Source: Nanohaloarchaea archaeon B1-Br10_U2g1
GTDB taxonomy: Archaea; Nanohalarchaeota; Nanosalinia; Nanosalinales; Nanosalinaceae
NCBI GenBank assembly: GCA_001563875.1
Contig: LKMN01000008.1
Span: 1 to 33,546 of the forward strand
Direction of reading: 5' to 3'
Length of the DNA: 33,546 bases
The position numbers were made by a program, and so were the translations under genes. Positions 3,804 to 6,038 of the stretch are shown piece by piece (within the stretch, counting starts at the first letter, position 1; every line of letters starts with the position of its first letter). The notes under the pieces are model-generated. The model ran no database searches and was not told where the DNA came from. It was given only the letters and a program-made list of their open reading frames with translations.

Positions 3804-4214
3804 TTAGATAGCTTCTCCTTCTGTGTTTTGACATACATGCTCCAAGGAGTCTCCTCTCATGTTCAGCTCCACAATGGCTTGAGGTTCTAAACCTTCATCT
3901 ATCTCAATCGAGGAAGTTTCAGAAGGCTCCAGGAACTGTTCTTCTTCGATCAGGGTAAGCTCATCTCCTTCTGCATAACCTGTTATATCCGTGAGATCGA
4001 CGACTCGGTCCCCATCATTTGTTATAGATAGGTAGGCGGAGTCTTCGTCGTCCCAACAGCTGTTAATGGTTATGCCTGCGAGATTGTTCGCTACATCTGT
4101 CTCGGTCTCGACACCGTCCTGAAGGTCTACCATAGCAACATAAAGTGTGGCTCCAAGACCCAACGTGACCGCTATAAGCACAACAACCGCGATCACAGGT
4201 GTAACTCCTTTCAC
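3804..4214 (-). CDS. Archaeal type IV pilin/archaellin-like protein with class III signal peptide (136 aa)
   Basis: GTG at 4214 gives MKG|VTPVIAVVVLIAVTLGLG, a prepilin peptidase site followed by a hydrophobic helix, then an acidic globular domain with two Cys. The track start at 4385 is too long. Confidence 0.85.
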   Translation of the reverse strand: MKGVTPVIAVVVLIAVTLGLGATLYVAMVDLQDGVETETDVANNLAGITINSCWDDEDSAYLSITNDGDRVVDLTDITGYAEGDELTLIEEEQFLEPSETSSIEIDEGLEPQAIVELNMRGDSLEHVCQNTEGEAI

Positions 4215-4287
4215 ATCTATAGTAGGTTTAAGCTGGTTTTTACAGGTTATTGAAGTCTTTATCAAGGACGGAAAGTATACGTTCTTT

Positions 4288-4755
4288 ATGTCAGACCATC
4301 CTTTTGTCGATGAAAAAGCAAGAAAATCAACTACTATAGTAACAAAACACTCTTTAGCAATCCCTGAGGACGAACAGAAGTTCAAAAAAAGCCAGAGAGC
4401 CTGGAACTGGGAGAAAATCGTTGATCTGTTCTTCCCTGAAGAACAGTCTCCTAAAAGGAATAAGTATGCAAAAATATTCTTGAGAGAGCTTAAAGAAGAA
4501 GGCGAGATCGACTCAGAAAAGCTGAACGCATTCGATCAATGGGGTCATGAAAAAGGAAAATCAAACCTGAAAAACAATATTCTGCCTAAATTAAGACGTC
4601 TAGGAGTAATAAAATACGAGTACTTGGAGTATCGTGGCCGCCGTGAAGGAAAACAAGGCCGTCGTAAAGTTATCAAACCAGCACGAAGCTTCTCATCCAT
4701 ACTTGACTCTATGGCTAACGGCTGGGCTGCTTACGAGTCTGCGGCACTGGAATAA
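4288..4755 (+). CDS. Hypothetical basic protein, possible winged helix-turn-helix (155 aa)
   Basis: ATG at 4288, divergent from the pilin. SNLKNNILPKLRRLGVIKYEY...GRRKVIK resembles a wHTH recognition helix plus wing. Unusually K/R-rich for this acidic proteome. Confidence 0.7.
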   Translation: MSDHPFVDEKARKSTTIVTKHSLAIPEDEQKFKKSQRAWNWEKIVDLFFPEEQSPKRNKYAKIFLRELKEEGEIDSEKLNAFDQWGHEKGKSNLKNNILPKLRRLGVIKYEYLEYRGRREGKQGRRKVIKPARSFSSILDSMANGWAAYESAALE

Positions 4756-4762
4756 GATAGCT

Positions 4763-4800
4763 GTTTCTACCCGGGTAGAAACTTCTTTTCGCAGCGCTGC
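4763..4800. repeat. Two perfect palindromes; possible bidirectional terminator or binding site
   Basis: GTTTCTACCCGGGTAGAAAC (4763-4782, 20 bp) and GCAGCGCTGC (4791-4800), lying between convergent ORFs. Confidence 0.75.
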
Positions 4801-4809
4801 TCCGCTTGT

Positions 4810-4926
4810 TTAAAGAGCGGTTGCGGCTAATACTTCTGCATCGGAACTAAGTTCTGTCTCATGACGAAGATTTGTCTCCTGCTGTGCTTGAAGCTCCGCT
4901 TCGAAGTGTCGTGTGTTCGCGTTAAT
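4810..4926 (-). CDS. Putative small ORF with non-AUG start, 38 aa (I)NANTRHFEAELQAQQETNLRHETELSSDAEVLAATAL
   Basis: AGGTG SD 7 nt before an ATT codon, acidic protein-like composition, and a stop codon in the loop of a CCGCT/AGCGG hairpin. No in-frame ATG, GTG or TTG is available as a start. Confidence 0.4.
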   Translation of the reverse strand: MNANTRHFEAELQAQQETNLRHETELSSDAEVLAATAL

Positions 4927-4966
4927 CGTTATACACCTTTTTTATCGGGTTCTATAGTGTTAAGTA

Positions 4967-5276
4967 CTGGTTGGGAGATGTTCCGGAGACAGGCTCCACC
5001 CGGCTAGCAGAGTCCGTCCTTCCAAAGTTTCCAACGGTGTAGGAGGTGACAGGTTGTTGGAATACTTTTCTGGTGTCGTGTTTTTTCGCGGTCGGCCCGA
5101 ACACCCCGTTAACAGGGGTCAAGGCTTCATCCCACTTCACTCTGCCAGATACTTAATAATTTGAGAGAAGTTAGCCTTGACCCTGGTAAACCTAAGGCTC
5201 ACCGGCATCAGATGTTTCACGGTTGCCTGGTTGTTCAGGGCCAAATTCATTAGGTTGAAGTTGGGGTCGCTACCTT
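4967..5276 (+). ncRNA. Putative structured ncRNA (~300 nt), family unassigned
   Basis: Several helices: CTGGTTGGG/CCCGGCTAG, GGAG/CTCC, TTCCAAC/GTTGGAA, CAGGGGTCAAGGCT/AGCCTTGACCCTG, ACCG/CGGT and CCTGG/TCAGG. G-U pairs work on the + strand. TATA-like tracts lie upstream and a T-tract follows the 3' end. Confidence 0.45.
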
Positions 5277-6038
5277 TTAAATATTTCTGTTTTCTACGTG
5301 TTTGAGGAAGAAACGGTGTTCTAGACGGCTATGGACGAGTTCTAGTACTTGTTCTAGGTTTTCTGTATCGTAACGGTTGTAACGTATAAGATCCTCTAGA
5401 GCGTTTTCGTTTCCTTTGTTCTCGTATTTTTTCCAAAGTCTGACTGCTTCGCGTCCATCGATATCTTCTAGCTCTCTTTCTACGCCTAGGTCTTTCTCAA
5501 TTTTTTTCAGTCCTCCGGTAAGCCCTATTCTTCTACAGGAATGCATCAGGTCGATGTGAGGAAGCTCAATATCTAGATTGTAGTTTTTTTCAAGGAAAGG
5601 CTGGTCAAACATCTTGCCGTTAAATGAAACAAGCACTTTGGATTTGTGAATCTCTTTTTGCAGGTTTTCTCTCGTAAGGTCTTGGCCTTGTACGAAGGTT
5701 TTGGACTCTCCCCCTCTGTAAAGGCTTACAGTTGTAACTTTGTTCTTTTCTGGCGATAAACCTGTTGTTTCTATATCAAAGAAAGTTGCAGACTCTTCAA
5801 AGTTTCTGTACATACGCCAAACTGATTTACTTGGTAGTTGCGAACCGAAGAAAACACTGTTACCTACTTCAAGGTTTTTGCGTGCTTTTGAGAGAAAGTT
5901 GGATATCTTTTGTTTCTTATTGTCTGAGATTGAGGATTCTGTTACGTCGTCCCAGTGTGTTATGCCTTGTTTCCACAGTTTTTTCTCGGTTTTTTCTCCT
6001 ACACCCGGTGCTAGTAGAAAACTGTTTTCGATACGCAT
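5277..6038 (-). CDS. YprB-like RNase H-fold (DEDD) exonuclease with N-terminal HhH-like motif
   Basis: PGVGEKTEKKL HhH-like motif, FFDIETTGL, SFNGKMFD, HIDL, GGLKKIEK and RYNRYD. Confidence 0.88.
   Translation of the reverse strand: MRIENSFLLAPGVGEKTEKKLWKQGITHWDDVTESSISDNKKQKISNFLSKARKNLEVGNSVFFGSQLPSKSVWRMYRNFEESATFFDIETTGLSPEKNKVTTVSLYRGGESKTFVQGQDLTRENLQKEIHKSKVLVSFNGKMFDQPFLEKNYNLDIELPHIDLMHSCRRIGLTGGLKKIEKDLGVERELEDIDGREAVRLWKKYENKGNENALEDLIRYNRYDTENLEQVLELVHSRLEHRFFLKHVENRNI

Follow-up and report, generated by a model that had tools for sequence, protein, structure and literature searches.

A probable bicistronic micro-protein messenger with a predicted kink-turn between its reading frames in Nanohaloarchaeota

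Main finding

The 33,546-nt stretch of DNA that was analysed (the window) stems from a nanohaloarchaeal genome (G000; 710 kb, 26 contigs, 96.75% complete). At positions 4967-5276 it holds an interval that a first-pass annotation, made from the letters alone, had described as a free-standing structured non-coding RNA (ncRNA) of around 300 nt on the plus strand. The interval falls inside a 520-nt gap that reaches from the stop of a plus-strand open reading frame (ORF; 4147..4755) to the stop of a minus-strand ORF (5277..6038), the two flanking ORFs being convergent. In our reading the gap probably encodes a bicistronic micro-protein messenger on the minus strand, in which two ORFs, ORF-A and ORF-B, are separated by a structured intercistronic RNA that is predicted to bind the protein L7Ae. 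Both ORFs would lie on one transcript of about 490 nt, of which the interval represents the 5' two-thirds; about 115 nt of positions 4967-5276 are taken up by ORF-A, a micro-ORF whose frame is conserved. The parts of this cassette are, from 5' to 3' on the minus strand:

5276..5283, minus strand: TATA box, minus-sense TATTTAAA, overlapping the YprB/RNase_H_2-like gene at its stop codon and preceded directly by an A-rich stretch resembling a B recognition element
5137..5250, minus strand: ORF-A, 37 codons (5250->5140) plus a TGA stop (5139-5137); peptide MNLALNNQATVKHLMPVSLRFTRVKANFSQIIKYLAE
5088..5135, minus strand: kink-turn hairpin, with canonical helix (C-helix) GUGG (5135-5132) paired with CCGC (5091-5088)
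5069..5087, minus strand: A-rich single-stranded linker GAAAAAACACGACACCAGA, of variable length
5024..5068, minus strand: hairpin H5, UUCCAAC/GUUGGAA plus outer AAAGU/ACUUU, with a C/U-rich apical loop AACCUGUCACCUCCUACACC
4987..5019, minus strand: hairpin H6, a 13-bp stem (5019-5007 with 5000-4987) with loop UAGCCG, consensus UUGCAA
4934..4939, minus strand: Shine-Dalgarno-like AAGGUG, 7 nt 5' of the ORF-B start
4810..4926, minus strand: ORF-B, 38 codons (4926->4813) plus a TAA stop (4812-4810); peptide INANTRHFEAELQAQQETNLRHETELSSDAEVLAATAL

The comparison covered 70 genomes of the phylum, including 49 of the window's own family (f1), ten of family f3 and eight of family f4, and also families f2 and f5. 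The Nanohaloarchaeota genomes compared measure about 0.7-1.3 Mb.

Strand, promoter and transcription unit

In 44 of 46 homologous loci a TATA-like octamer is found at one and the same position of the alignment (regular-expression search). As the apparent stop of the upstream frame lies at varying offsets from it (a rough estimate based on the longest open frame), the box seems not to arise simply from that stop codon. It precedes the ATG of ORF-A by around 27-30 nt, and from this spacing only a transcription start near 5251 is proposed. When the same alignment was folded with RNAalifold, the minus strand reached -98.2 kcal/mol versus -69.5 kcal/mol for the plus strand. Read on the minus strand, the supported helices contain 311 G-U and 63 A-C cells, and 91.7% of their cells are paired versus 78.8% when read on the plus strand, so that the earlier argument from G-U pairs for plus-strand transcription is reversed. 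Promoter, G-U asymmetry, kink-turn and both ORFs agree, and the element most likely belongs to the minus strand.

That the whole unit forms one transcript is suggested by the other families, because these lack a TATA-like sequence between their H6-like hairpin and ORF-B. The stretch between the two is short there, and GC-rich in f4.

ORF-A

In 43 of 44 family members ORF-A runs from an ATG near the proposed transcription start to a stop codon in one and the same alignment column, and it would therefore be leaderless. The ORF measures 35-43 amino acids (aa) in the family, and the stops over all 44 members are TAA (30), TAG (8) and TGA (6). All of the 205 gap runs in its columns have a length divisible by three, versus 24, 75 and 70 runs with a length of 0, 1 and 2 modulo three in the intercistronic columns. 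With its frame kept across insertions and deletions, its fixed stop position and its interchangeable stops, ORF-A behaves like a translated micro-ORF. On the basis of this conservation of frame and stop we abandoned a wholly non-coding minus-strand RNA of 275 nt, which had been entertained as a candidate. The stop codon lies 1 nt from the C-helix of the kink-turn, and constraints at the level of the RNA and of the code seem to overlap within the ORF.

The intercistronic RNA

The structure was evaluated on 44 full-length homologues (alignment A5) with 49 minus-sense pairs, 500 shuffles and slid controls. In the 49-pair structure 89.8% of the cells are paired, and changes on both sides were observed in 29 pairs and 217 cells; none of the 500 shuffles attains any of the five measures, and the slid controls are 33-47% paired. 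The conservation and covariation among relatives on which the first-pass annotation had made its structured RNA depend are thus present in these homologues, but for the minus-sense structure.

Directly behind ORF-A the RNA shows the elements of a kink-turn: a C-helix, a 3-nt bulge followed by tandem G.A/A.G pairs, and a non-canonical (NC) helix. In the window the bulge reads GAU (5131-5129), the G.A/A.G pairs are formed by 5128-5127 with 5093-5092, the 3b.3n position is A5126.C5094, and the NC helix is capped by CCCC/GGGG. The four pairs of the C-helix are paired in 44 of 44 sequences, through changes of GC to GU, GC to AU, GC to CG, CG to UG and UG/CG to UA. The letters of the tandem G.A/A.G pairs are invariant (44/44), and the bulge is either GAU or AAU. 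The first NC pairs (182:223 and 183:222) are likewise formed in all 44, the latter as CG in 34 and as UA in ten, and in the upper NC helix all eight pairs are changed on both sides. The -1b:-1n pair is G:C throughout (44/44), and 3b.3n is A.C in 22 sequences, C.C in 12 and another combination in ten. The kinked geometry and the binding of L7Ae are predicted from these features; what the genome itself adds is the presence of an L7Ae gene.

Downstream, the GAA directly 3' of the C-helix is conserved, and the remainder of the linker is A-rich and varies in length. The region of H5 aligns poorly; the homologues show a predicted hairpin with one of two loop types, CCUGCCAUCUCUACACC or CUCUGUGGAACA. 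For H6, 97.0% of the cells are paired in the 44 sequences and 11 of the 13 pairs are changed on both sides. The minimum free energy (MFE) fold of the intercistronic segment of the window reproduces the kink-turn hairpin, H5 and H6. Alternative pairing is possible, as segments of the RNA are near-repeats of each other (S1 of S3, S2 of S4). A long-range CUGG:CCGG helix closing the 3' domain was dropped (68.8% paired, zero compensatory changes), and the letters beside the kink-turn do not appear to fit the consensus of T-loop or sarcin-ricin motifs.

The first-pass annotation had recognized several of these elements by their complementary words. Its TTCCAAC/GTTGGAA stem corresponds to H5, and its CCCC/GGGG caps the kink-turn hairpin. 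The long stem CAGGGGTCAAGGCT/AGCCTTGACCCTG, said to compete with CCCC/GGGG and so to allow switchable conformations, carries no covariation signal: it is 82.7% paired in the reverse complement, and 430, 291, 150, 466 and 189 of 500 shuffles scored as high on the respective measures. Locus L019 breaks six of its nine pairs and compensates in the kink-turn hairpin (by eye). The same goes for the proposed 5' three-way junction, which is 47.9% paired versus 42-53% when slid 1-3 columns 5'-ward, with 88 of 500 shuffles as high.

ORF-B

A profile built from 20 homologues matches positions 4813-4926 of the minus strand of the window (contig C15 of G000) with an E value of 4.2e-19, and its matches adjoin the RNA in 46 genomes at E <= 2.3e-9. 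ORF-B was found beside the RNA in 46 of 47 genomes; in the exception, G047, the contig ends 4 nt past the RNA match. The homologues count 36-38 codons and read M[DN]ANTR[DHN]FE[AT]ELQAQ...EA.VV.ATAL. Across 28 ORFs of equal length (39 are complete) the mean pairwise identity amounts to 0.639, 0.776 and 0.444 at codon positions 1, 2 and 3, and this pattern, with its relaxed third position, is that of a coding sequence.

An [AG]GGTG motif precedes ORF-B in nearly all aligned loci (by eye, uncounted), and in 15 loci without an ATG at the usual place the motif supplies an in-frame GTG exactly 6 nt 5' of that place (by eye). The Shine-Dalgarno motif is situated around 195 nt downstream of the kink-turn in the window and around 120 nt downstream in other families. 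Sequestration of the motif by the kink-turn 5' strand, the H5 loop or C/U-rich motifs was considered and set aside, being suggestive in f1 and not conserved elsewhere (by eye).

The profile search also returned weak N-terminal paralogues of ORF-B elsewhere in several genomes. Furthermore, ORF-A of genus g27 in family f3 (locus L155; ..QVNANTLFEIDL..) and the N-terminus of ORF-B in f1 (MNANTRDFEAEL) have NANT...FE.[DE]L in common; ORF-A and ORF-B may be ancient tandem paralogues.

Distribution within the family and in sister families

With blastn, significant homologues turned up in many genera of f1. Searches with R1, a covariance model of the core, recovered exactly one site per genome in 47 of the 70 genomes. 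Specified by family, it matched 45 of the 49 genomes of f1, one of the ten of f3 and none of f2, f4 and f5; the four f1 genomes that were missed are 72-85% complete. The single f3 match, on contig C114 of G039 (roughly 2.5-2.9 kb), is probably mis-binned. G039 carries two cassettes, this f1-type copy, which is 72% identical to the window, and a native one with a degenerate f3-type ORF-B on contig C8.

The arrangement nevertheless extends beyond the reach of R1. Downstream of the YprB homologue of genus g27 the same order of parts is encountered in unrelated sequence: a TATA box, a 29-aa ORF-A, its stop, a mini kink-turn (CGGGG-GAU-GA-C-GUG...CAC-C-GA-CCCUG), hairpins, GAGGTG and a 38-aa ORF-B (MCFECQNFEKELEG...). 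A search with the f3 ORF-B peptide (query from L155) at E <= 0.1 had matches, mostly weak (3e-6 to 0.05), in six of ten f3 and seven of eight f4 genomes. Eleven loci were inspected, nine from this search and the two of g27, and nine of these eleven have a GAU-bulge kink-turn 130-173 nt 5' of ORF-B. At locus L163 it was not found within 480 nt. With L163 left out, nine of ten loci have an ORF-A of 25-32 aa with a TATA box 29-34 nt ahead of its ATG, and in the same nine the stop of that ORF lies 1-5 nt before the GAU-bulge motif. For one of these, L161, start and TATA box were read by eye; the script had chosen a far-upstream ATG and gave no TATA box.

The C-helices in these families are 4-6 bp long (GUGGGG/CCCCAC, GUAGGG/CCCUAC, GCGGGG/CCCCGC, CCCGGG/CCCGGG, AGGG/CCCU, CGGGG/CCCUG); they differ and covary between genera. 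H6-like hairpins of the form GGGCAGG..CCUGCCC are found as well. In f4 and in genus g29 the unit is located directly 3' of a histone gene, and the convergent downstream gene is conserved in most loci. Considering these comparisons together, two sister families keep the order of the parts despite an almost complete turnover of the sequence. Given that the loose kink-turn finder also matches 648 of 2200 shuffled leaders, it is the position and conservation of the motif that carry weight and not the finder.

In two g27 loci, L155 and L154, a second kink-turn-like hairpin, ACGGCAGGA-GAU-GA-G-GGC-GUAA-GCC-U-GA-UC(G)CUGCCGU, was noticed just past the stop of ORF-B (by eye). It was not seen 3' of ORF-B in the window or in f4 (by eye).

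A degenerate kink-turn pattern, run over genome contigs, retrieved 31 archaeal records, most of them labelled Nanohaloarchaea or close names, and 15 bacterial ones. The latter were treated as chance matches since their R1 scores (8.1-19.8 bits for 12, three unscored) are far below those of four archaeal controls (91-114 bits).

L7Ae and a proposed mechanism

L7Ae is encoded on contig C9 of the window's genome (94.7 bits), which also encodes fibrillarin and Cbf5. Some 60 nt ahead of l7ae (locus L148, about 1385-1450) the leader reads ACGCCUUGAUGAUCCAAGGUUUGUGAAAGGUGAAACAAUUAAUG and can be drawn as GCCUU-GAU-GA...GA-AAGGU, with a C-helix that includes the Shine-Dalgarno motif (by eye). The regulatory kink-turns of archaeal l7ae leaders are stem-loops with a GAU bulge and tandem G:A/A:G pairs, as Huang, Ashraf & Lilley 2019 (PMC6298567) describe them, and because the organism's own leader resembles these published elements, control by L7Ae and a kink-turn appears plausible in it. 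According to the same paper, a G:C pair at -1b:-1n, unlike C:G, blocks folding in metal ions alone, and L7Ae folds every kink-turn tested. Given the G:C pair in all 44 sequences and the mostly A.C combination at 3b.3n, the kink-turn of the cassette is probably protein-dependent.

Based on the above, the kink-turn would be an L7Ae binding site that folds on protein binding only. Because its C-helix abuts the stop codon of ORF-A in three families, a terminating ribosome and bound L7Ae may compete for the same nucleotides; the ribosome, in terminating, would unwind the site for L7Ae. In this manner translation of ORF-A and the availability of L7Ae would be coupled to the fold of the intercistronic RNA, and via this fold the coupling may reach the expression of ORF-B or the stability of the transcript.

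A bolder proposal, which we put forward tentatively and hold to be rather unlikely as it stands, is that of an L7Ae-sensing translational device specific to Nanohaloarchaeota, in which a leaderless regulatory ORF ends exactly at a protein-dependent kink-turn, with ribosome traffic and free L7Ae contending for one RNA. Free L7Ae would then serve as a read-out of the assembly of ribosomes and ribonucleoproteins (RNPs), and the outcome would set the level of the second micro-protein or free a stable kink-turn RNP.

Relation to known RNA families

No sequence in the whole window matched Rfam at gathering thresholds. At relaxed thresholds there were only two matches, both sub-threshold and attributable to chance (DUF3800-VI at 18.9 bits and CRISPR-DR27 at 21.2 bits, with a cut-off of 35 each), and 17 homologous loci gave no Rfam match at E <= 1. 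Covariance-model and ARAGORN searches agree with the earlier statement that signatures of RNase P, signal recognition particle (SRP) RNA, tRNA and transfer-messenger RNA (tmRNA) are missing. On the plus strand the stability is no greater than chance: its MFE is -101.6 kcal/mol (z = -0.63), and 27 of 100 shuffles are at least as stable. Taken as a set of observations, it holds for the gap, the quoted complementary words and the conservation, but not for the plus strand or for a stability above chance. As an interpretation, it is supported in so far as there appears to be a conserved structured RNA that matches no Rfam family, but neither the plus strand nor a free-standing RNA of ~300 nt; the structured part sits between ORF-A and ORF-B, and the latter lies outside the annotated interval.

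RNase P RNA was an attractive candidate as the window's genome has no match to its archaeal family, RF00373. The model gave no match to the region at E <= 10 and a best score of 7.5 bits in the genome, where no RNase P RNA was found, and none was found in G001 of the same genus. RF00373 matches do occur in 43 of the 70 genomes, and in 33 of 49 other family members. Six relatives (G002, G003, G006, G011, G017 and G018) carry such a match and the element at different loci (e.g. contigs C50 and C55 of G003, or positions 914713 and 35143 of G018), which is why the element is not regarded as RNase P RNA and the candidate was rejected. In a Pfam search of the genome for RNase P proteins, Pop5 and Rpp30 were not found, and weak matches were obtained for Rpp29 (15.2 bits, 274-aa frame) and Rpr2/Rpp21 (11.7 bits, 120-aa frame, C9:15101-15340). 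PMC4919917 reports the full set of five RNase P proteins for at least one representative of the Nanohaloarchaeota. Loss, extreme divergence or a gap in the assembly are possible reasons for the missing RNase P RNA in the window's genus.

Other families could be discarded more directly. The SRP RNA (RF01857) of the genome is located at C23:151-423 (118.7 bits), and this model gave no match at the interval. ARAGORN finds no tRNA or tmRNA at the window; a tmRNA was also rejected on the grounds that most genomes provide ORF-B with start signals of its own, namely a Shine-Dalgarno-like motif and either an ATG or an in-frame GTG, and no conserved sequence able to form an acceptor or T arm was found 3' of ORF-B. 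A box C/D small RNA was suggested by similar letters (AUGAAGC / CCGA) and rejected; the intervening 29-35 nt pair into a helix that covaries and are not guides. C'/D' motifs were not seen in the element.

Weighing the evidence

Several observations weigh against the bicistronic L7Ae-binding messenger. Strand, start site, co-transcription and translation are all deduced by comparing genomes. Folding energies are not better than those of shuffles (for the minus strand z = -1.98, with 3 of 100 shuffles as good; for the 160-nt intercistronic part of that strand z = -0.48, with 62 of 200 shuffles folding as well). Neither peptide has a match in Pfam or NCBIfam, and searches of the Atlas gave no usable match for either. 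Within ORF-A the identity at codon positions 1/2/3 is 0.708/0.626/0.635, thus without a relaxed third position, which may mean that the peptide matters less than its translation or that RNA constraints overlie the coding signal; the helices H1 and H2 inside ORF-A show compensatory changes in just two and four pairs. In the window's own genus (window 4924-4939, locus L069) ORF-B has no ATG or in-frame GTG: it would start at an ATT, 7-8 nt past AAGGTG, whose GTG is in another frame. Between the kink-turn and the ribosome-binding site of ORF-B lie 130-230 nt, unlike in known L7Ae switches. The 5' strand of the kink-turn, GCCUU, is complementary to the AAGGUG of ORF-B and this is the best duplex in around 17 of 41 family members (tallied by eye); we do not rely on it because it is not kept in sister family f4. 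Finally, locus L159 has a degenerate kink-turn and no ORF-A.

Of the alternatives, the one that survives best is that the part from kink-turn to H6 (~5136->4985), alone or with the ORF-A region, is a stable, L7Ae-bound, trans-acting small RNA (sRNA) with a dual function. It would arise by processing of the transcript or by termination inside it, the ORFs being secondary or carried along. Unpaired nucleotides are conserved in the family (the GAA past the C-helix, the H5 loop and the H6 loop UUGCAAGG), a G-U pair at the H6 loop is invariant (44/44), and the third codon positions of ORF-A are as conserved as the second, all of which would fit such an RNA. Kink-turn RNP biology appears active in the organism given its genes for L7Ae, fibrillarin and Cbf5. 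In f1 the 13-bp stem of H6 is followed by a short U/A-rich stretch, but this is weak and inconsistent (CAUCUCC in the window), and the sister family has GC-rich sequence running into the Shine-Dalgarno motif instead. Considering furthermore that complementarity to targets was not found and that both ORFs show a clear frame and coding constraint, we consider such an sRNA unlikely.

Less likely still, and in our view improbable, is the presence of two ordinary small protein genes, each with its own signals; the hairpins would then do no more than terminate or stabilize the RNA, and no protein would bind the kink-turn-like sequence. In favour of this are the coding behaviour of both ORFs and the unremarkable folding energies, and in f1 a weak TATA-like C[TA]T[AT]T past CCGGAAC, after H6, could be a second promoter; the sister family, however, has no promoter-like sequence 5' of ORF-B. 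Such genes would also leave unexplained why the letters of the kink-turn are invariant in all 44 sequences and its C-helix covaries, why the motif lies 1-5 nt past the ORF-A stop in three families whose surroundings have diverged beyond alignment, and why the intercistronic region is more conserved than usual terminators.

The free-standing plus-strand ncRNA with switchable folds, possibly a diverged RNase P- or SRP-like RNA, is very improbable: the quoted complementary words are present, Rfam gives zero matches and the genome has no detectable RNase P RNA, but bona fide RF00373 matches lie elsewhere in relatives with the element and the SRP RNA is on C23, the helices lose their G-U pairs on that strand, the G.A pairs of the kink-turn exist only in the minus sense, the junction and the long stem do not exceed their controls, and the RNA would be antisense to two conserved ORFs.

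Neighbouring genes and genomic context

The minus-strand ORF 5277..6038 upstream of the cassette matches RNase_H_2/YprB (Pfam, 1.9e-44). The convergent plus-strand gene at 4147-4755 encodes around 157 aa (the listed ORF counts 202 aa from an upstream GTG) and had zero matches in a Pfam search. Families f1, f3 and f4 all retain this gene downstream of the cassette, and the two may be functionally linked. All of 17 homologous loci have the same neighbours, i.e. the ~157-aa ORF, the element and the ~250-aa YprB-like gene. Between the two convergent transcription units lies one further feature, read from the sequence:

4763..4782, no strand assigned: inverted repeat GTTTCTAC-CCGG-GTAGAAAC, terminator-like

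Some side observations concern the wider context. The minus-strand ORF 3804-4385 has a hydrophobic segment 'KGVTPVIAVVVLIAVTLGLGATLYV' with the appearance of an archaeal type IV pilin-like signal, and it adjoins grpE- and dnaK-like ORFs (both by eye). The genome has two further TCACCTCCT sites, which represent GGAGGTGA in reverse complement; the one on contig C10 stands before an ATG. The 3' end of 16S rRNA was not found in the assembly when a conserved 16S word near that end and the anti-Shine-Dalgarno word were searched.

Likeness to known systems and implications

The cassette appears to match no described RNA or protein family in Rfam, Pfam, NCBIfam or the Atlas, and no title retrieved from the literature on non-coding RNA, L7Ae and small or leaderless proteins of Nanohaloarchaeota suggests it (titles only). 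There are nevertheless partial parallels. Bacterial dual-function sRNAs like RNAIII/delta-haemolysin, SgrS/SgrT and SR1/SR1P have one ORF and seed regions with known targets, and are not known to have a kink-turn. Common to these and the cassette are a short, strongly promoted transcript and the combination of RNA structure with ORFs of around 25-45 codons, whereas the cassette is archaeal and has two ORFs and a kink-turn. Where translation remodels a downstream RNA, as in leader-peptide attenuators and RNA switches coupled to translation, the frame and the end point of the ORF are expected to be kept over its residues. Likewise, frame and end point of ORF-A are stricter than its residues, and it ends directly at a structured element. 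In contrast to attenuators, a covarying terminator/antiterminator pair was not found in the cassette, ORF-A has no regulatory codon run, and the downstream 'regulated gene' has only 38 codons. Archaeal RNase P RNA (RF00373), with its P12 kink-turns, is of a similar size class and also has a kink-turn hairpin, and the purine-rich strands GAGUAAAG / GAAAA flanking the kink-turn resemble, at first glance, CR-II/CR-III; the cassette, however, has no CR-I or CR-V motifs and no RF00373 match, and is partly coding.

Another likeness is to the L7Ae-binding kink-turns in the 5' leaders of archaeal l7ae mRNAs (Daume et al. 2017, PMC5539422; Huang, Ashraf & Lilley 2019, PMC6298567). The cassette also has a GAU bulge, tandem G.A pairs, a -1b:-1n pair other than C:G and a helix that overlaps a translation signal. 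It differs from these leaders in that its motif is found outside l7ae, behind a putatively leaderless micro-ORF, with L7Ae binding being predicted, and in that its kink-turn is part of a three-hairpin intercistronic RNA. Whereas a leader switch regulated by L7Ae has the ribosome-binding site in or next to the helix of the kink-turn, the C-helix of the cassette abuts a stop codon and not a Shine-Dalgarno motif: the nearest signal is the stop of ORF-A, at 1 nt, and the next ribosome-binding site is 130-230 nt off.

Nanohaloarchaeal genomes are tiny and have little spare sequence, yet three families keep this single-copy cassette of ~0.5 kb, in a fixed neighbourhood after a histone or YprB-like gene and facing the conserved 157-aa gene. 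With it, two unannotated putative micro-proteins and one unannotated structured RNA would join the core gene set of the group. The case also illustrates that a 'structured ncRNA' call from raw sequence can mask leaderless micro-ORFs on the opposite strand. For the study of kink-turns the cassette offers a concrete candidate for a motif that adjoins a stop codon and not a ribosome-binding site. Should the L7Ae-sensing device proposed above prove true, no kink-turn switch coupled to a stop codon would have been described before it, nor any conserved dual-function RNA from DPANN archaea.

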